Origin: a virus
UHGV virus genome: UHGV-0114473
Length of the DNA: 36,939 nucleotides
Reading direction: 5' to 3' (one strand)
The position numbers and the translations under genes were made by a program. Shown one piece after another: positions 50 to 29,132 of this stretch. Within the stretch, counting starts at the first letter, position 1. Each line of letters begins with the position of its first letter. Below the pieces are notes generated by a model. It saw only the letters and a list, made by a program, of their open reading frames with translations. It was not told the origin of the DNA and searched no databases.

Positions 50-2320
50 TTAATCTTCAGTCACATTATCCATAACTTTGAGGCACGCAACTAGACGATT
101 ATTGTTTCGTCTTTGCAATGCAGCCTCAAGGACTAAAGCCTCTTCATAACGGATACCATAACGTGAGCCTGCAGGAGTGACCAGAATATCTTCATATTCT
201 GGATCTGCCTCTTCTTCATACTCTTCTTCGACTTCTTGAAACTCTGTCTCGATGTACTCCTCTTCTACATCTTCAACTACAGGGACGCTCACGAATGGAT
301 TTTGCGCAAAAGGTGAACCATCTTCATTAAGAACAGGTATCATTTCCATTTTTGGAGTCTGATACTCTTCATTCACTACTCGTTTAATCCGTGTTCCGTC
401 TTCCAGTACCTCATCCTTTAATACCTGACGACTCTCAGTAACCATCACTGGTTTGCTTACAATTCGAGTTTTAGTAACCTGCACTGGAACTGTTGTTATG
501 CGAGTTTTAGTAACCATTACACCTTCGTTTGTCTGAACCTTAGTATATTGATCATCCCACTCGTCAAAGCAAAAGAATCCAAATCGGTGCACATCAAGCC
601 CATGACGTTCAAACGCCTCCTTTGCACGTTGAGCTATTACGCCAAAATGCCAACGAGCTCCGTCTTCTCCTTTTTCTTCTGTTCTGTCAAGATACTGAAA
701 TTGAACGAAGTCAACCTCTGACCATGCGTCAAGTATTGTGTCAGTGATTTCAAGAGGTGCAGTTTTAGCTCGCTCATCTGAAGTAACGGTAAAGGCTGTT
801 TGAGTGAATCCACCAGACCACACACGACCAGCAGTTCCGACCGTGCTATTACTGTTCTGTGAGTATGGTGTAATAGATGAGTCTACTCTCACAACCCCAT
901 CCCCCTTTGGAGATAGCCTCAAATCAATATCTGTGTCGCTTCCAGCAACGCCAACAGCAGGAGCATTAGATGCTGTCTGTGAGCGCATGGCTAGATAATT
1001 GGCAGGAACTGTAGGCCCAGACTCTATGGAAAATATAGGTAACCCAGACGATAATCGTGTAAATACTACGCCATTATCACTAAATAACATTCTGGTTGAT
1101 CTGGTTGCATCCTCCAAAACAGAGAGTATTTCAGAAGTTTTCTGATTTGAATTATTGTACCAAGTCATTGAGTGTCTATTACCAAAAGCAATTGCCACAC
1201 CTTGACCTGTTGATTCTCCGTCGGTTCCTTTAAGGCTATTGCTGCCAAATACGATGCCCTTCAGAAAGCGTGCTGTTTTCCCAGCAGTTTTGTCGTTAGC
1301 TATTATTCCAATTGCTGCCGATGCAGCATTCAACACTTCTCCAGCTTGGGTTAATTCACCACCTGAGCCTAACCATAATGCGTCAGTCTGACCGTTGGGG
1401 AACATTGAATTAGGATACAGTTCACGCTCATTCCCCCTGTTTGCTATATCAAGTTCAAGACCGTGACTTGCTCCGATTGTTCCTGCATTTCTTACAGTTG
1501 AACCATAAAGTGCCCATGCGCTAGACCTAACACCTGATGAATCATCGTTGTAAGCCATCCCGGCTACGGCAAGAGCAGCATTACCCGGTTCACCATCTCC
1601 AGTATGAGCAGATCCAAAAATTCCTATCCCATCTGGTGGGGCAATCCCAACATTTCTACAGTGTCGCTCTAAATAGAAATAAATATTTCCCCCTAGCCCT
1701 GCCATCCATGGCACTTGCCTTAACCAATACCCACCAATGAATGTAACATCCATTTCCATTTCCCACGATGTAAGTGGGTCTGAAACAATATCCTGACTTA
1801 ACAAATAAGTGCCAGCAGGAATATAAATTTTGCGCCTTGTCGCATTAGCCGCAAGAAAAGCTTCAGTAGAATCAACAACTCCTGTCGGGTCAGCACCTCC
1901 TGCAAAACCACTCCAAGTAACAGGCTTTGCTAATCCTCCGACAAATCCAGCTCCACCAGGACCCTCCAGTTCAGATCGCAGTTGATCAGGGTCATACTTC
2001 AGCACATTAGGAAAATAGAACTGCTGCGCACCATATGCATCATAAACAGCCATAGAATGACCTTGCACGGTAACGAATTTGGCAATCTGTCCGTTATATA
2101 CCGGATAACCAGCAGCGTTAATGATGATTGGTTGAGAAACAGGAACGTGAGAACCGTCTTCGTTCTCTACATAAACCTGAATCCGGTTTTCAGGATTTAC
2201 CGGGTCAGTGTCAATTTTACCGATATAAATTTTGCCATTGGCTACGGCTTTAAAAGAACGAGCCATAGTGAATAGTTGCGAAGGCATACTCACTACAACA
2301 TTAGCTGTAATGTCTGTCAT
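50..2320 (-). CDS. Tailspike/tail fibre: P22 gp9-like N-terminal head-binding domain, divergent receptor-binding domain, C-terminal intramolecular-chaperone-like region
   Basis: N-terminus [59 protein letters not shown] matches the P22 tailspike head-binding domain from memory. C-terminal region (…[27 protein letters not shown]…) resembles self-cleaving fibre chaperone domains, followed by TKTRIxxxPVxV repeats and an acidic tail. Confidence 0.85.
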
Positions 2321-2378: not shown

Positions 2379-2401
2379 AAAAAAACCCAGCCGAAGCTGG
2401 G
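2379..2401 (-). terminator. Rho-independent terminator downstream of ant
   Basis: On the minus strand: CCCAGC-TTCG-GCTGGG stem-loop followed by TTTTTTT, 20 nt after the ant stop. Confidence 0.6.
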
Positions 2402-2420
2402 TTGTCGCGTTGGTTATCTG

Positions 2421-3323
2421 TCAGTAGTTATGTACTGAAGGAGGTAATTCTTTATTCTTAAGTCTCATCCATGCGGAAAGATTCGTTGGTCCGTCTGGCT
2501 CATTAATATCAACATCTCTTGTGTGATTGATTAAAACGTCTCTCGCCATTCCGATAACATACGAGAATTCATGACCGTAGTCGTAGCATCTGCCGGAATA
2601 GTTCGATTGAATTTGTTTTAATGCCGGATACAGTTCACGGAATAATGCCTGTGAGCGGTTGGCATAATCCCATAACCATACAAGGCTGTTTGCTTCTTTC
2701 GCAGAAAGCTCGTTGGTTTTCTTCTCTTGTTTGCCAATGAACTCACCTTCAAGCACTACCCTGTGGATGTACTCTACGGCTTGCGGTATCTGAGATGCAT
2801 CAAGCTCTTCAATACTGTCCACATTGAAACGCTGATGAATCATTGCATAAGCTTCTGGGTACATTAGATGCTTTTTGCTGACTAGCATATTTACAGCATC
2901 ACGAAGCGGAGTCCTGTCATCAACAGATGTTTTCTTACGTGCATTTTCTTCCTTTCCCTTTGTCCAGTAGTCATGCAGCACAGTAAAGCATTCTTCCTGG
3001 TACTGAATAAGTTTATCGCGGATGTCAGCACGAACTTTCTCAGGGTTGATGCTGAACAGCCACCCATTTAACTTCTTCAAAGGAAGGCAGAGTAACTTAC
3101 GAAGCTTCCCATCAGCGGCAACCATGTTCATATGAACACAGTTGAATTTGCTAATCTGCTTCATGAGTTTTGTTTGCTGCGTTGACCAGCTCATTCCAAG
3201 GTTTTCAACGATTGGCTTCATCGCAACATATGCAACTCCGACAGCCATGGCGGTGATAATTTGCTGACCGTTGAATGGTACGTAAGAGGTGTTCACTGCT
3301 TCTAAAATTGCTATACTATTCAT
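2421..3323 (-). CDS. ant: Antirepressor Ant (P22 immI type)
   Basis: Translation from [21 protein letters not shown]… gives 300 aa, the size of P22 Ant. GGAG Shine-Dalgarno 11 nt upstream; synteny arc-ant-tailspike. The ORF track starts 22 codons earlier at 3389. Confidence 0.8.
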
Positions 3324-3385
3324 GTTGGTTTTTCTCCACGGATTTACTGACAACCGAAGCCCTGACTGTTCCCGCAGTTGGGGCT

Positions 3386-3607
3386 TCACTGTTTTTGTAA
3401 GTCACTGTAGCTATAAAGCCACTGACCACTCATTTTTGATTTGATTGACTCTACTGAATCACGGCAAGGAATGATTCCACCTGACATCATTCTGATCTCC
3501 GTAAATTCACCACTCCTTATCGACTCAATGCCATTAACGTTAACTAAAGATTTACCTCTACCAAGTGCATTCTCATAGCCAATCTCATCAACCTCGATAA
3601 ACTTCAT
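3386..3607 (-). CDS. Hypothetical 73-aa protein between arc and ant
   Basis: ORF whose ATG overlaps the arc stop (ATGA), suggesting translational coupling. No recognisable motif; P22 has no gene at this spot. Confidence 0.4.
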
Positions 3608-3756
3608 ACCGTTATCCCCTCTCTCTTCAGGCTGTCCAGCAATCGCTTAATCACTTCCGAGTTAAACGACCGGCATTCTTCTTTGGCCTTTCCTGTAATC
3701 GCATCTTTTAGCGACTGAGGCATTCTCACCAAAATTCTGCTAACTTCTTTTTCCAT
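3604..3756 (-). CDS. arc: Arc-like ribbon-helix-helix repressor
   Basis: [50 protein letters not shown], 50 aa. RHH pattern (…R.P…NGRS.NSE… equivalent) like P22 Arc. The second in-frame ATG is chosen because the predicted -10 overlaps the first. Confidence 0.75.
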   Translation of the reverse strand: MEKEVSRILVRMPQSLKDAITGKAKEECRSFNSEVIKRLLDSLKREGITV

Positions 3757-3865
3757 ATCGCCACCACGTGAGTTATTGTGAATCACAAACATATCACCGT
3801 GACTATATCAAGTCAAAATTTTTTTGAATACACTGTGATATCAATGTGATTATCACGGTGTAAGT
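3757..3865. promoter_or_regulatory. Divergent Pant/Pmnt control region with operator palindromes
   Basis: TTGACT -35 for the arc/ant promoter (rc of 3811..3816). Inverted repeats CACCGTGA (3795..3802) / TCACGGTG (3853..3860), GTGATA…TATCAC (3835..3856) and the palindrome TGATATCA. Confidence 0.5.
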
Positions 3866-4120
3866 ATGACGAAGGTTAGAGACATAGCCCCATATAGCGT
3901 AAGAATGCCAGATAGCCTCAAGCGCGACCTGACCATAAGAGCATCGAAAAACGGACGCTCATTAAATTCAGAAATAGTTATGATCTTGCAAGCTGCTATT
4001 GATGAAGAAAAATCACCAAGATCAATAGAAGGTTTTGCTCAACAAGAATCTGAAAAATTTAGGGAGGCTCTTCTTAAGACTCTCAGCAGCATGTACGGAG
4101 AAGATAAAAAACCCACCTGA
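3866..4120 (+). CDS. mnt: Mnt-like ribbon-helix-helix repressor
   Basis: MTKVRDIAPYSVRMPDSLKRDLTIRASKNGRSLNSEIVMILQAAIDEE…; RHH N-terminal motif and size (84 aa) match P22 Mnt (82 aa). Divergent from arc/ant. Confidence 0.8.
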   Translation: MTKVRDIAPYSVRMPDSLKRDLTIRASKNGRSLNSEIVMILQAAIDEEKSPRSIEGFAQQESEKFREALLKTLSSMYGEDKKPT

Positions 4121-4134
4121 CGGTGGGTTTTATT
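4106..4134. terminator. Bidirectional rho-independent terminator between mnt and the accessory cassette
   Basis: AAAAAA-CCCACC-TGAC-GGTGGG-TTTTATT: a GC stem flanked by an A-run and a T-run, so it can terminate both convergent transcripts. Confidence 0.6.
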
Positions 4135-4552
4135 AGTGCTTGTATAGGTTGAACTCTCTATCAAGCCATATAACAAAAAATGTCGATCCAAGACGATAAC
4201 CAACCATGGCTTTCAAATCATCAAATCTAAAAGCCAAGAAATGATCTACGTCTTCCGTTATATGACTGGGGATACCTGCTTTAATTGCACCCCTTGCAAT
4301 CTTCTCAAATCCAAGCTTATGCCTACCTTGCTGCTTAATATCTGCCCATGTTAGTTGACTTAATCTGTATAATTTATCAGCTAAGCCAGCTTTCTCATCT
4401 TTTTGGCATTTCGTTATGCAGTGAGAGCTTTGGATGTAACAGAATGAAAATTTCGGTTTCTTTTGATCTGAATTCCCCCCTGACTGCGGCCCTAACTTTA
4501 ACTTACCTGTAGATTCAGCAGGGGGGATAATCCTTTTAGATTTTCTTGCCAT
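4133..4552 (-). CDS. Hypothetical 139-aa protein, partner of the Panacea-domain gene (candidate toxin/effector)
   Basis: Start MARKSKRIIPPAESTG… lies 4 nt after the upstream gene's stop. Basic, low-complexity N-terminus; C-terminus …DHFLAFRFDDLKAMVGYRLGSTFFVIWLDREFNLYKH. No family recognised. Confidence 0.5.
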   Translation of the reverse strand: MARKSKRIIPPAESTGKLKLGPQSGGNSDQKKPKFSFCYIQSSHCITKCQKDEKAGLADKLYRLSQLTWADIKQQGRHKLGFEKIARGAIKAGIPSHITEDVDHFLAFRFDDLKAMVGYRLGSTFFVIWLDREFNLYKH

Positions 4553-4556
4553 CTCG

Positions 4557-5006
4557 TTAGTTAATCCGAGTTGCAAAGTACTCTGCCATCTCCTTAGAAC
4601 TAATTTCAGAACCACCAACACCCTCAATATAGTTTGATCTCCATGGTGACTCTTCGTGTGTCATGTTCCTCAGTTTCCAGGCAGAAAATTGCCCAAAAAC
4701 ATCCCAGACTTCTTCTAATAGCTCTAACTGTTCTTCGCTGAATTTTTCAGCATCAAAAGACTCTGGAGAAGGGATAGCACCATTACCATATTGTTTATAA
4801 CGGTGATAAAGCTCAGGGACAACAGGGCCATGCATCCAAGCTTCCATCTTATTCTGAAAAAGAGGCTCGCCAAGCAACGCCAATGAAAAACCCTGAGCAT
4901 AGTAAACAAGCTTTTGTAATTTTAAATTAGAGATTGCGTCACCGCTATCCTCGTCACACCGCGACAGGAAGTAGTCGGCGACATCAAAACAAGTAAGCAT
5001 GAACAC
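4557..5006 (-). CDS. Panacea/DUF4065 (SocA/GepA-like) domain protein, putative antitoxin
   Basis: Motifs LKLQKLVYYAQGFSLALLGEPLF…EAWMHGPVVPELYHRY…THEESPW typical of PF13274 (recalled, not searched). GGAGG Shine-Dalgarno 8 nt upstream of the ATG. Confidence 0.7.
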   Translation of the reverse strand: MFMLTCFDVADYFLSRCDEDSGDAISNLKLQKLVYYAQGFSLALLGEPLFQNKMEAWMHGPVVPELYHRYKQYGNGAIPSPESFDAEKFSEEQLELLEEVWDVFGQFSAWKLRNMTHEESPWRSNYIEGVGGSEISSKEMAEYFATRIN

Positions 5007-22321: not shown

Positions 22322-22397
22322 TGGTGCTGGTTAACGGACTTGAACCGCTACCCATTCGCTTACAAGGCGACTGCTCTACCATTGGAGCTAAACCAGC
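22322..22397 (-). tRNA. tRNA-Thr (anticodon UGU)
   Basis: Hand-folded cloverleaf of the minus strand: GCTGGTT acceptor, GCTC/GAGC D-stem, anticodon loop CTTGTAA, T-arm AGCGG-TTCAAGT-CCGTT, 3' AACCAGC-A-CCA. One A·G at 27-43. Confidence 0.7.
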
Positions 22398-22402
22398 ATG
22401 TT

Positions 22403-22477
22403 TGGCGGGACAGCGTGGACTCGAACCACGATAAGAAGGTTAACAGCCTTCCGTAATGACCTTTATACGACTGACCC
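22403..22477 (-). tRNA. tRNA-Asn (anticodon GUU)
   Basis: Hand-folded: GAAGG-CTGTTAA-CCTTC anticodon arm, CGTGG-TTCGAGT-CCACG T-arm (same as the E. coli tRNA-Asn loop), discriminator G + CCA. One U·U mismatch in the acceptor stem and one in the D stem; 4-nt variable loop. Confidence 0.6.
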
Positions 22478-22751: not shown

Positions 22752-23375
22752 CTAACGTGTGACCGCATTCAAAATGTTGTCTGCGATTGACTCTTCCTTG
22801 TGGCATTGCACCACCAGAGCGTCATACAGCGGCTTAACAGTGCGTGACCAGGTTGGTTGGGTAAGGTTGGGTATTAGCATCGTCACAGCGCGATATGCTG
22901 CGCTTGCTGGCATCCTTGAATAGCCGACGCCTTTGCATCTTCCGCACTCTTTCTCGACAACTCTCCCCCACAGCTCTGTTTTGGCAATATCAACCGCACG
23001 GCCTGTACCATGGCAATCTCTGCATCTTGCCCCCGGCGTCGCGGCACTACGGCAATAATCCGCATAAGCGAATGTTGCGAGCACTTGCAGTACCTTTGCC
23101 TTAGTATTTCCTTCAAGCTTTGCCACACCACGGTATTTCCCCGATACCTTGTGTGCAAATTGCATCAGATAGTTGATAGCCTTTTGTTTGTCGTTCTGGC
23201 TGAGTTCGTGCTTACCACAGAATGCAGCCATTCCGAATCCGGCTTGTGATTGCGCCATCCCCATAGCAGCCATCACATCAGTACCGGAAAGAGAGTCAGA
23301 AGCCGTAGCCCGTGGTGAGTCGCTCATCATCGGGCTTTTTGGCGAATGAAATTTAGCTACGCTTTCGAGTCTCAT
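22752..23375 (-). CDS. Q: Late-gene antiterminator Q (lambda type)
   Basis: 207 aa; MRLESVAKFHSPKSPMMSDSPRATASDSLSGTDVMAAMGMAQSQAGFG… with the CRDCHGTG…CGRCKG zinc-binding motifs; matches recalled lambda Q. Confidence 0.95.
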   Translation of the reverse strand: MRLESVAKFHSPKSPMMSDSPRATASDSLSGTDVMAAMGMAQSQAGFGMAAFCGKHELSQNDKQKAINYLMQFAHKVSGKYRGVAKLEGNTKAKVLQVLATFAYADYCRSAATPGARCRDCHGTGRAVDIAKTELWGRVVEKECGRCKGVGYSRMPASAAYRAVTMLIPNLTQPTWSRTVKPLYDALVVQCHKEESIADNILNAVTR

Positions 23376-25920: not shown

Positions 25921-28314
25921 TCATACGTCAGCCCCTTGTGCATATCGTCTGCCACGTGCAGCAGGTGCATTTGATGTTGTGCAAATCTGTCTGGCTTCAT
26001 CCTGGTCACATGCAACAAAGTGTCCGTTGCAGAACCGCTGGTAAACCGTACCAAGCGAGCCAAAACGGTTTTTTGTCACAATGATTTCAGCAAATGGCGC
26101 GGCGCTACTGTTCTCGTCATATACCGCTTCCCGATAGAGCATGATGATTGAGTCTGCGTCCTGTTCAATGCTTCCTGAATCACGCAAATCTGCGTTTGTC
26201 GGGCGTTTGTTTGGTCGCTTCTCAACATCGCGCGAAAGCTGACTCAGGGAGATAACAGGCGTTTTCAGGTCTTTCGCCATCGCCTTCAGGCTTCCGGAGA
26301 TGTGAGCAATTGCGAGATCGTTGCGATCTGCTTTAGGCTTCTCAATCAGGCCAAGATAATCCACCATGATGAGTGACAGGTTTGGATTTTCCTGTTTATG
26401 CCGTTCTGCGATTGAGCGTATTTCTTCGACCGATAACCGAGAGGCATCGACTACCCATACATCCAAATCTGCAAGCTGACTCATGCCGTTAGCAACACGC
26501 GCCCAGCCTTCGTCATCCATCGATGCAGGATTTCGCAGTACGCTAACCGACATCCTCCCGGCGTTGGCAATGCTTCGCTCTGCAATCTGCAATGCGCTCA
26601 TTTCCATTGAGAAAATCAATACCCCGCGCCGGACGTCAGAACCAGGAATAACGCGGCTTGCCACGCCTTCGGCAATCTTCAGCGCCAGTTCCGTATTGTG
26701 CGTAACGATGTAATCCGTTGTCACATAGAGATGACTAGGATGGCTTACCATGATGCAGAGACACTCTTCTGGCTCAACAACTTCAACCGATTTGATACCC
26801 ACACCAAGGTTACCAAGCCTGTTAATCCCGAGATTTTTACGTAAACGTGGTGAGTGAATTTGCTCTATCAAAGATGATGGCAACTTCATGCTGACCATGT
26901 GTGCGTCAAGTCCGGCATGCTTCTCTCCTTTGTACGTGTAAACTATTCCCGTCCTGCTGGATTCTTTGGCGGTTCCACCTAAAGATCTAACAAGCCTTAC
27001 TAATCCTTTAGCTAATTTCTGACTTGATGAACTAAAGCGGATGCATCCGGACTTCTCAACCCAGCCATCTGTCTCGAGCAGGCCAGTTAAAACACCGGTA
27101 CGTATTTCTTTGCTAGCACTAAAAATTTCTTCTGGGATTTCCTTCTCGGACGCACCTTTCCCGATCACCCCAATGCCACGTAGTTTGTCCAATAGTGGGT
27201 TCTTCTGGCCTTTTTGGTTACTTATCAAATAATCATTCTCTCCTACCTTAACCAGTCGCAGTGGTGCAATTGCATCACTCATGCGGCTCAGGACATATTC
27301 TTCCGAGTTGGTGAATTTGATGCCTTTTATCAACGAACCGTCACCAAGTAGAGCCCCAATAACCCAACCATCAAGGGGAATATTTTTACCAAAGTCTCCG
27401 GTCAAGGATGGCACTCTTATTCTTCCCTGATAACGTGTTTTTTGTAGCATCCCAGCCAGCGCATCAGTATCAACAACGCGTTTACCAGTAAATCTTGATG
27501 ATGAAATTTCCCATAAGTGGTTGTCGGCACATTTCACGCTACGTCCGTCTTCAAAGGTGACTAAATATGTGAATTTCTTCCCTTGCGGGAAGACGCCAAT
27601 TACCTCCGAAGGAAGCCCGTCTATTGACGCGATGCGATCGCCAATTTTGACTTCTCCGTGAGTAGTCCAGGTGCCATCTGCAAGTAAAATCCCTTCGCTT
27701 AGCGCCATTGCTTTCCCCATACCAGGACGAGCAGCGATTATCACAAGGTCTTCTGCGTTCATCCCTCCGGTGATGGCATCAAGTTCTTCGATTCCGGTCT
27801 TCAGGGTATCTGACTCTTCTCCGTTCCTCAGACGCCTGTCAAGCGTGTCAGTGTAGTCAGTGATGATTTCCCCTAACCGCACCGGTTTAACCTCGTCACG
27901 GGGCTTTCTGATGGCTGAGAGACGCTTTACAAGCTCATCCATCGCCTGACTCGATGCGTCGATGGTTCCGCTCCGAATTGGTTCACGCATTTCATCCATG
28001 ATTTCCAGCACCAGACGGCGGTGATAGTTATCCGCGACCATTCCGGCATATCCCTTCAGGTTTGCGGCACTCGGGCAGTTTTTGCTGGTCATCAGGATTG
28101 ACGTGAAATGCTCCTCTCCGCACTCCTCGGCAACCAGCAGCGCGTCGATTAGGTTTCTGTTTCTCGCCTGCTTGCGGATAACCTCGAAGGCTTTTCTGTA
28201 GAGCGGAATTGAAAACGCTTCCGGCTCAAGCGTTGCCAGAACGTCACTGGCGGTTGGAGTTAATCCACCAATCAGCAAGCCACCGATAACGCTCGCTTCG
28301 ATATCCTGTCTCAT
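25921..28314 (-). CDS. DnaB-like replicative helicase (P22 gene 12 type) interrupted by an intein
   Basis: Exteins total 458 aa (201 + 257), the size of P22 gp12. The Walker A is split as …ARPGMGK[339-aa insert][10 protein letters not shown]…; C-terminal DnaB motifs ([31 protein letters not shown]) are intact. Confidence 0.85.
26695..27711 (-). mobile_element. Intein with LAGLIDADG homing-endonuclease domain inside the helicase P-loop
   Basis: In-frame 339-aa insert between GMGK and T. It ends …YIVTHN before Thr+1 and carries two LAGLIDADG-type motifs ([15 protein letters not shown] and [11 protein letters not shown]). The first residue appears to be Ala. Confidence 0.75.
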
Positions 28315-29132
28315 GCAATCCCCCTGTCTGCAAACTTCCCTTCCCGAACTCCCGTTAACGAATCTTCTCTCAGCAAGTAATCAAAATCAGCCGTCCAGCC
28401 CGTGTCGTTGTCTCCGAAGTAAAACGGCTTGGCCTGATGTACAAACGCCCTGACATACGCTCTGAAACCGTCCACGTTTGGCGTTTTCAGTTGTGGGATG
28501 ATTTTCTTCAGGCGGCGTTTGCGTTTCTCGTTGACCGCAACAGCGTGTGGAAGTCTGTCACCGACTTCGGTGTTGTAGGCGTTCAGGAAGGATTCGTAGT
28601 CGATTCGTTCTGCCTTGCGACGTTCAGGTTTAACCTGCCCATCGCCGCCCCCGTTAGGGGGTAAGGGGGTATTTGTATTTATTGTCTTTTGTATATTGTC
28701 TTTTGTGTTTAGCTGACTTGGCTTATACCCATTAGCCGACTTGGCTAATGTTTTATTAGCTGTTTTAGCTAATGTTAAGCTGTCCTGGCTAATCCACTGC
28801 GAAACCACCTTGTTCACTCCGATTTTCACGCCATCAGCAATGAGGAATTTACGCTCAATAAGCTGGCGCTTGGCAGCGCAAACATGAGTGTGATGAATAC
28901 CTGTCATGGCTGCTATCTGCGTGTTTGTGAGTCGATCCATCGGCTTATTGAATCCGTATGTCTTGCGCATGATAGCGAGCATCACCTTCAACTGCCGGAC
29001 GGTTAAATCAGCCATCAGCAGACTGTCGGTAATCTCGTTAGCAACGCGCATGAAACCATCTTCGGTATCTGCCACGCGATGCTCCACGACCTCCAGTTGA
29101 GGCCTGTAATCAGCTAACTTAACGACGCCCAT
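28311..29132 (-). CDS. O: Replication initiator (lambda O / P22 gp18-like)
   Basis: 273 aa; N-terminal DNA-binding region, low-complexity linker that encodes the iterons, C-terminal domain; directly upstream of the helicase with ATGA overlap. Confidence 0.7.
28644..28800. repeat. Origin of replication: four ~17-bp iterons plus AT-rich region, inside the O gene
   Basis: Direct repeats AGCTGACTTGGCTTATA, AGCCGACTTGGCTAATG, AGCTGTTTTAGCTAATG, AGCTGTCCTGGCTAATC at 20-24 bp spacing (28711..28794), next to the AT-rich run 28671..28710 and the palindrome CCCCCGTTAGGGGG. Confidence 0.6.

Follow-up and report, generated by a model that had tools for sequence, protein, structure and literature searches.

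The replicative helicase gene of UHGV virus genome UHGV-0114473, a stretch of 36,939 nucleotides (nt) referred to here as the window, is interrupted by an element that is very probably an intein of class 3, containing a LAGLIDADG homing endonuclease and lodged at the DnaB-b site of a P22 gp12-type helicase. The gene, recognised from the list of open reading frames (ORFs) and from Pfam matches, lies at 25921..28314 on the minus strand, as do all the parts of it described below, and encodes a DnaB-family precursor of 797 amino acids (aa). Residues 202–540 form an insert of 339 in-frame codons (26695..27711) that splits the Walker A motif between its Lys and Thr (GMGK/T, with the slash marking a junction here and in what follows). 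Insertion within the P-loop corresponds to DnaB 'site b' (PMC6195587): the flanks read GMGK/intein/TELAL and the surrounding sequence matches the Pfam DnaB and DnaB_C models, with the DnaB N-terminal domain at aa 3–95, DnaB_C broken into two stretches of which the better restarts at aa 540, and a LAGLIDADG_3 match between the two.

The limits of the 1017-bp insert are set by alleles that lack it and are otherwise 96–98% identical. At the DNA level the occupied gene reads GGGAAA/GCAATG...CACAAT/ACGGAA and the empty one GGGAAA/ACCGAA, an unambiguous pair of junctions with no shared bases that would allow sliding; with longer flanks the empty site is CCTGGTATGGGGAAA/ACCGAACTGGCG. Because this boundary cannot slide, Ala must be intein residue 1 and Thr the +1 residue. 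Computed removal of the insert leaves 458 aa, which align without a gap across the junction with the uninterrupted 458-aa allele of E. coli L65 (annotated 'replicative DNA helicase'), and the junction peptide expected from the spliced helicase is ARPGMGKTELALK. The insertion is thus precise far beyond chance, and its GC content (45.5%) can be set against 51–53% in the flanking exteins. A preliminary description made from the sequence had proposed an in-frame insert of 339 aa splitting Walker A, with Ala as its first residue and an expected 458-aa spliced product, and the empty alleles and re-translation of the gene bear out each of these points. A start at Ser5 of AMALSEG, which would have supplied a class 1 nucleophile, was also considered and is ruled out by the empty allele, which fixes the junction at GK/T.

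All sub-feature coordinates were re-translated. The N-extein comprises helicase aa 1–201 (27712..28314) and ends ...ARPGMGK, the first part of Walker A. Within the intein, which runs from Ala1 to Asn339, the HINT N-lobe (intein aa 1–105; 27397..27711) holds block A (AMALSEG...) and block B, the latter with the His65-Leu-Trp67 codons at 27511..27519. The LAGLIDADG domain follows (aa 106–300; 26812..27396), with motif 1 around Asp124 at 27331..27366, motif 2 around Asp215 at 27058..27090 and an invariant Lys190 at 27142..27144. The HINT C-lobe (aa 301–339; 26695..26811) contains block F (26722..26769), in which Cys319 (26755..26757) is the predicted nucleophile and Cys317 (26761..26763) its neighbour, and block G, YIVTHN (26695..26712). 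The C-extein (25921..26694) supplies the rest of DnaB_C and opens with the ACG codon of Thr+1 (26692..26694), at once the Walker A Thr and the predicted second splicing nucleophile.

Several lines of evidence identify the insert as an intein. A phmmer search against all Protein Data Bank (PDB) sequences returned almost exclusively inteins, with E-values down to 1e-9 to 1e-11, among them gp41-1, PI-SceI, PI-PkoII, and the class 3 DnaB inteins MchDnaB1 of M. chimaera (6rix/6riy) and Msm DnaBi1 of Mycobacterium smegmatis (6bs8). When the endonuclease domain is removed, the alignment to 6bs8 and 6rix runs from end to end: His65 and Trp67 align with His65 and Trp67 of Msm DnaBi1, and Trp67 also with Trp67 of MchDnaB1; Cys319 aligns with Cys118 of Msm DnaBi1 and with the MchDnaB1 block F cysteine, Cys124 (PMC7664689); and Thr337-His338-Asn339 align with Thr137-His138-Asn139 of Msm DnaBi1. 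Class 3 inteins are defined by the lack of a nucleophile at A:1 together with Trp at B:12, Cys at F:4 and Thr at G:5, definitions that are backed by mutation experiments (PMC3196547, PMC5222942, PMC6195587), and their +1 residue is Ser or Thr and rarely Cys (PMC5222942). Their biochemical hallmark is a branched thioester at block F, and mutation of Cys F:4 to Ala kills both splicing and N-terminal cleavage (PMC5222942). The insert has Ala1, Trp67 (B:12), Cys319 (F:4), Thr337 (G:5) and Thr+1, along with the more general intein features of blocks A, B, F and G, His65 at B:10, a penultimate His338 and the terminal Asn339.

The preliminary description had called the insert an intein with a homing endonuclease, noting two LAGLIDADG motifs, a terminal His-Asn, Thr+1 and a possible Trp-Cys-Thr (WCT) triad, and had proposed that blocks A, B, F and G be sought by alignment. 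All of these are found, the blocks in alignments both to solved inteins and to the homologs described below, whilst the identification as an intein with an endonuclease is upheld by the PDB search, the homolog alignment and the predicted fold. Two points need adjustment. The class 3 cysteine is indeed in the motif EECLCIM, but it is specifically the second Cys of that motif, Cys319, that occupies F:4. The suggested 'non-canonical' mechanism holds in so far as the element is not class 1, but class 3 is a well-characterised class with solved structures and the element is therefore less unusual than that wording implied.

The same residues are conserved among the relatives of the element. A search of 5.8 billion proteins yielded 85 homologs, whose named hosts are mostly DnaB-type helicases and PhoH-like ATPases. 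Among them Trp B:12 (64/64), Thr G:5 (66/66) and Asn G:7 (64/64) are invariant, and the +1 residue is always Thr or Ser (64/64, with Thr in 62 and Ser in two). His B:10 is found in 62 of 64, Cys F:4 in 65 of 68 and Ala at A:1 in 41 of 45, and wherever the N-extein of a homolog is visible, Lys or Arg precedes Ala1. The three homologs that lack the block F cysteine (P0020, P0031 and P0082) also lack the terminal Asn, and one of them, from Paraburkholderia, is by its annotation a free-standing protein, a 'LAGLIDADG family homing endonuclease'; these are probably decayed or domesticated intein derivatives.

Structure prediction leads to the same identification. For the intein plus flanks of 10 aa, AlphaFold2 gave a confident model from an alignment of 42 sequences (pLDDT 92.7, pTM 0.91). 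Foldseek searches with the whole model gave only inteins as top matches, led by PI-SceI (E=1e-18, TM 0.69) and including other endonuclease-bearing inteins. The HINT lobes matched MchDnaB1 and Msm DnaBi1 with target TM-scores of 0.76–0.86, and the middle domain matched I-DmoI-type LAGLIDADG enzymes. The insert is thus predicted to have a HINT fold with a LAGLIDADG endonuclease. Both acidic residues of the LAGLIDADG motifs are kept (LLGDG with Asp124 and LLETDG with Asp215), and the alignment with PI-SceI pairs its ...VKNIP... segment with an invariant Lys190-x-x-Pro.

A 600-nt artificial spliced-junction query was run against complete E. coli genomes. The empty site is present in 669 of 5426 genomes at 95–98% identity, in every case annotated 'replicative DNA helicase', whilst only 24 complete genomes carry the full-length insert. 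The insert is also found in 51 phage records, mostly of Stx2a phages, and variants at 65–73% identity occur in other lambdoid helicases in assemblies from sequencing runs. The exact 797-aa protein of the window is present in public assemblies. Three alleles that were looked up fall in a single 90%-identity cluster of 1046 members, which include Salmonella Schwarzengrund, Salmonella Kentucky and phage TL-2011a, and 770 and 408 contigs respectively carry two of the three alleles in exact form. Where members of the cluster have a name, it is 'DNA helicase', 'replication protein' or 'hypothetical protein' and never intein.

Eight occupied alleles were compared: those of the window, O121 RM8352, WG5::TT12A, YP3, ET734, E189, SCU-308 and MS20659. 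The 797-codon frame is open in seven of them, and the only break is in ET734, where an IS66-family element (locus L007, about 3030–4017) disrupts the C-extein. Polymorphisms within the intein number 18 synonymous to 6 non-synonymous, when random mutation would be expected to give 23% synonymous (p=1e-7); in the endonuclease domain alone the figures are 11 and 4. No polymorphism among the eight alleles falls in blocks A, B, F or G or in the LAGLIDADG motifs. These data show strong purifying selection on the intein.

Divergence amongst the alleles is 0.1–1.6% in the intein and 1.3–3.5% in the exteins, that is, 2–20 times lower in the intein, and a comparison of YP3 with ET734 finds one difference in 1017 intein positions against 20 in 603 extein positions (p=3e-8). 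At least two extein haplotypes that are also found empty carry this one intein, and near the junction occupied and empty alleles have haplotypes in common (GATTATCGCC or GATAATCGCT at -28/-22). The sole fixed difference is the Thr+1 codon, which is ACG in all eight occupied alleles and ACC in all six empty alleles sampled, a marker at +3. Homing with short co-conversion tracts would leave such a pattern, and the population data suggest that the intein is mobile, now or recently, among lambdoid replication modules.

The strain named WG5::TT12A carries a Stx2a prophage at wrbA with an intact intein-bearing helicase, and O157:H7 strain TT12A has the same helicase allele. Judged by its name, WG5::TT12A appears to be a lysogen of the laboratory strain WG5 made with the TT12A phage, in which case a phage carrying the intein was inducible, was packaged and became established.

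In RefSeq/PGAP annotation, every occupied genome that was examined has the 797-codon gene broken up into pseudogene fragments, two or three in number: a 'DnaB-like helicase N-terminal domain-containing protein, incomplete' and one or two C-terminal pieces, some of which start inside the intein. Homologs of the window gene mis-annotated in this way lie at 2398–4791 of locus L001, 19398–21791 of L005 and 898–3291 of L006–L010. Since translation is uninterrupted, these labels are an artefact of the in-frame insert. Left as they are, they would lead to intact prophages being mis-scored as replication-defective, and they need correction.

A number of observations weigh against reading the insert as an active, mobile class 3 intein. 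The Pfam intein and HINT models all score below threshold (Hom_end_hint reaches 17 bits against a cutoff of 32, and Hom_end is likewise sub-threshold) and LAGLIDADG_3 alone passes, at 26.5 bits against 22.5; the intein call therefore rests on the PDB search, the homolog alignment and the fold. At B:7 the element has Ala (ADNH) where Msm DnaBi1 has the Asp of its DxxH. A WCT triad grafted onto gp41-1 gave mostly cleavage, so the signature by itself is insufficient for splicing (PMC7664689). Splicing, its chemistry (including the branched intermediate) and DNA cleavage by the endonuclease are all activities that we infer, although purifying selection and the apparent transmissibility of the phage lend indirect support to splicing. 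One insertion followed by recombination in the flanks, without repeated homing, could likewise account for the intein being less diverged. Finally, our view of WG5::TT12A as a lysogen depends on the name of the strain and on the prophage at wrbA, and a literature search found no paper on TT12A and WG5.

Three other explanations have been weighed against this background. A dead or decaying intein that no longer splices would leave the helicase non-functional and the prophage either replication-defective or dependent on another helicase. The pseudogene fragments listed in RefSeq would accord with this, but they are annotation artefacts. Inactive class 3 intein pseudogenes do exist in prophage remnants, Arsp-FB24 Arth_1007 being one (PMC3196547), yet Arth_1007 lacks Cys F:4 and His B:10 whereas the catalytic residues here are all intact. 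Remnants of the window-type intein likewise occur in decayed prophages and the occupied allele is rare, with 24 genomes to set beside 669 empty ones; against this stand the open frame in seven of eight alleles (the eighth, ET734, being broken only by its C-extein IS66 element), the excess of synonymous change (18 to 6, p=1e-7) and the presence of the allele both in WG5::TT12A, by its name a laboratory lysogen, and in Stx2a phages from several lineages. We consider a dead intein very unlikely.

It is more doubtful again that the intein is active but splices by another route, either with Thr+1 attacking the N-terminal junction directly, in class 2 fashion, or with Cys317 rather than Cys319 as the nucleophile. 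Tori and Perler point out that, as long as Cys F:4 has not been mutated, inteins with a class 3 signature might in principle follow either pathway, and the paired cysteines of ECLCIM leave room for a choice of nucleophile. The full WCT triad, however, aligns with proven class 3 inteins, Cys F:4 is present in 65 of 68 homologs compared with 27 of 67 for Cys F:2, and Thr+1 is typical of class 3 whereas Cys+1 dominates at this position in other classes (PMC5222942). That the 339 aa are no splicing element at all, but a permanent accessory nuclease domain, a gene fusion or an assembly artefact, is barely conceivable. Public records do name the 797-aa protein simply 'DNA helicase', but a Walker A Lys and Thr kept 339 aa apart cannot bind nucleotide, the insert has a predicted HINT fold and a terminal His-Asn, and its boundaries are identical in independent complete genomes, with the exact protein on hundreds of contigs. 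The empty alleles, the fold and the class 3 alignment effectively refute this explanation already.

For an active class 3 intein, the likely course of events can be proposed by homology to Msm DnaBi1, Mle DnaB and Mch DnaB1 (for residue roles in Msm DnaBi1, see PMC5222942 and PMC6195587). The 797-aa precursor would be made with its P-loop split by 339 aa and hence ATPase-dead; because Lys201 and the Thr of GMGKT lie so far apart it should not bind ATP, and P-loop inteins in RadA are known to abolish ATPase activity (cited in PMC6195587). Cys319, positioned by His65, Trp67 and Thr337, would then attack the Lys201–Ala1 peptide bond, taking the N-extein as a thioester to form the block F branched intermediate. 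Transfer of the N-extein to the side chain of Thr+1 would give the block G branched intermediate, cyclisation of Asn339 with the help of His338 would free an intein of ~37 kDa, and an O-to-N acyl shift would rebuild GMGKT in the 458-aa helicase. The endonuclease of the freed intein would be expected to cut intein-less helicase alleles of co-resident phages or prophages, with repair copying the intein in. The gene 12 helicase is needed for P22 DNA replication, and so the phage would depend on splicing unless host DnaB can substitute.

Two residues upstream of the predicted catalytic Cys319 lies a second cysteine, Cys317, the pair forming a CxC motif (26755..26763). Cys at F:2 is found in 27 of 67 homologs, including all the close enterobacterial relatives, whereas Val occupies this position in the mycobacterial inteins proven to be class 3; a further Cys at block B position 6 (Cys61) is present in 38 of 64 homologs. 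A redox or metal role for the CxC pair is possible. Mycobacterial class 3 DnaB inteins are reversibly blocked by H2O2 and zinc via the block F cysteine, and oxidative stress induces Stx prophages. One might speculate that the intein acts as a conditional switch, with oxidative stress holding the helicase as an inactive precursor until reducing conditions return, although we think this unlikely. Were it true, the intein would be a protein-level gate on replication, and hence on Stx2a gene dosage, in the Stx2a phages of O121:H19 and O157:H7.

Among the closest known parallels are the mycobacterial DnaB inteins, namely Msm DnaBi1 and the M. leprae and M. chimaera DnaB1 inteins (6bs8, 6rix), which are class 3 and likewise occupy DnaB-b in a DnaB-family host. 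The flanks of Msm DnaB-1 (FGVGK/.../STLGL) place the insertion at the same GK/S or GK/T point as in the window (GMGK/TELAL). Ala1, His65, Trp67, the block F Cys, Thr-His-Asn and a hydroxyl at +1 are common to all, and these inteins are the best matches of the HINT domain in both structure and sequence, albeit at only about 11–28% identity in the Foldseek alignments. They are nevertheless mini-inteins without an endonuclease, whereas the window intein keeps a full LAGLIDADG domain, and their hosts are cellular DnaB proteins rather than a phage gp12-type helicase of Enterobacteriaceae. They have Ser at +1 where the window intein has Thr, and DxxH in block B where it has ADNH; they lack its extra Cys at F:2 (CxC), and Cys48, the redox-switch partner in Msm, has no obvious equivalent in the window intein. 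The MP-Be DnaB intein is the founding class 3 member. In the Bethlehem record AY500153, positions 30–52 kb contain an uninterrupted DnaB-like gene of 273 aa, and the window intein had no tblastn match in that region.

The nearest described relative is the intein in the 'P' primase–helicase of Stx phage Min27, which is 50% identical over all 339 residues and shares with the window intein its architecture, Ala1, the GK/A...THN/T junctions, HLW and ECLCIM. Its junctions lie at the P-loop of its own host (GVNGHGK/ACPL...ATHN/TEVV). That host, in Min27 and 24B, is a T7 gp4-like Toprim primase–helicase that is non-orthologous to the gp12-type helicase, although both are replication genes of lambdoid enterobacterial phages. 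An intein with a HintN domain was noted by Smith et al. (2012) in the P protein of Stx phages 24B and Min27 and of a Shigella flexneri prophage, without mention of class, nucleophile or P-loop position (PMC3430580).

More distant comparisons can be made with PI-SceI (yeast VMA1), PI-PfuI and the Tli and Pho VMA inteins, which have the same combination of HINT and LAGLIDADG domains and are the best structural matches to the whole model. PI-SceI can be aligned by sequence with the window intein in its second LAGLIDADG motif and around the active-site Lys, but it is class 1, has Cys1 and Cys+1, resides in a V-ATPase and is only about 15% identical. The gp41-1 split intein is the best PDB sequence match for the N-lobe and also ends in ...THN; it differs in being a natural class 1 split mini-intein of a cyanophage-like DnaB/gp41 helicase, and its engineered WCT variant (6riz) mimics class 3 yet lacks productive splicing.

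A literature search found no description of the window intein, the 24B/Min27 P-protein intein being the only one to turn up, and inteins have been stated to be apparently absent from E. coli and Salmonella (PMC5050341). The element is thus an undescribed and mis-annotated case in E. coli and Salmonella prophages, but neither a new variant nor a new mechanism: it belongs to a standard and well-understood group, the class 3 inteins that occupy the classic P-loop site of DnaB, here with a LAGLIDADG endonuclease, and leaves general knowledge of inteins unchanged. Its value is that the prophages of E. coli and Salmonella, including the Stx2a phages of the outbreak lineages O121:H19 and O157:H7, have a natural class 3 intein of their own that carries an endonuclease. 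The best genetic system could therefore be used to study homing and class 3 splicing, with native host and phage.

Two kinds of remnant were seen. In six pig E. coli 'Res13' genomes only 58 bp of the helicase gene are left (locus L002 3001–3058, equivalent to window 26746..26689), made up of the last 52 nt of the intein and 6 nt of the C-extein. Deletions on either side join this remnant to the immunity region (around window 29556) and to a DNA-transfer-protein gene (around window 7658). One of the breakpoints is 6 nt from the intein insertion point, which may be coincidence or may be linked to cutting by the endonuclease. The other remnant is a 284-aa ORF (P0005; locus L017 4001–4855) in a decayed prophage, with its deletion endpoint inside the intein: it starts within a 70%-identical intein, runs into DnaB_C and directly adjoins an N-peptide gene. 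In the Stx2a prophages that carry the intein, free-standing homing-endonuclease-like genes, encoding a NUMOD4-domain protein and an HNH endonuclease, are found a few genes downstream of the helicase (locus L001 6279–6881; locus L005 22136–22747). Opposite-strand ORFs of 61–76 aa within the intein found no support.

The window is a P22-like E. coli prophage, with a gene set that includes a head-binding tailspike, a P22 antirepressor, sar RNA, a CI-type S24 repressor, Phage_rep_O, NinB, antiterminator Q and RecT. Upstream of the helicase lies a P22 gp18-like replication-initiator gene with a Phage_rep_O domain (28311..29132, minus strand; from the ORF list and a domain search); its stop overlaps the helicase start in an ATGA, and the helicase gene is translationally coupled to it. 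Rfam places sar RNA, which in P22 is the antisense regulator of the antirepressor gene, at 3324..3390 (plus strand; 87.7 bits), a position that overlaps the start of the P22_AR ORF for the antirepressor (2421..3389, minus strand). Two phage tRNA genes, tRNA-Thr(TGT) and tRNA-Asn(GTT), lie at 22322..22477 (minus strand), just downstream of the antiterminator Q gene (22752..23375, minus strand). The 756-aa tailspike (50..2320, minus strand) combines a P22 head-binding domain at aa 1–113 with a Peptidase_S74 intramolecular-chaperone domain at aa 514–575, and is the second self-processing protein module of this prophage besides the intein.

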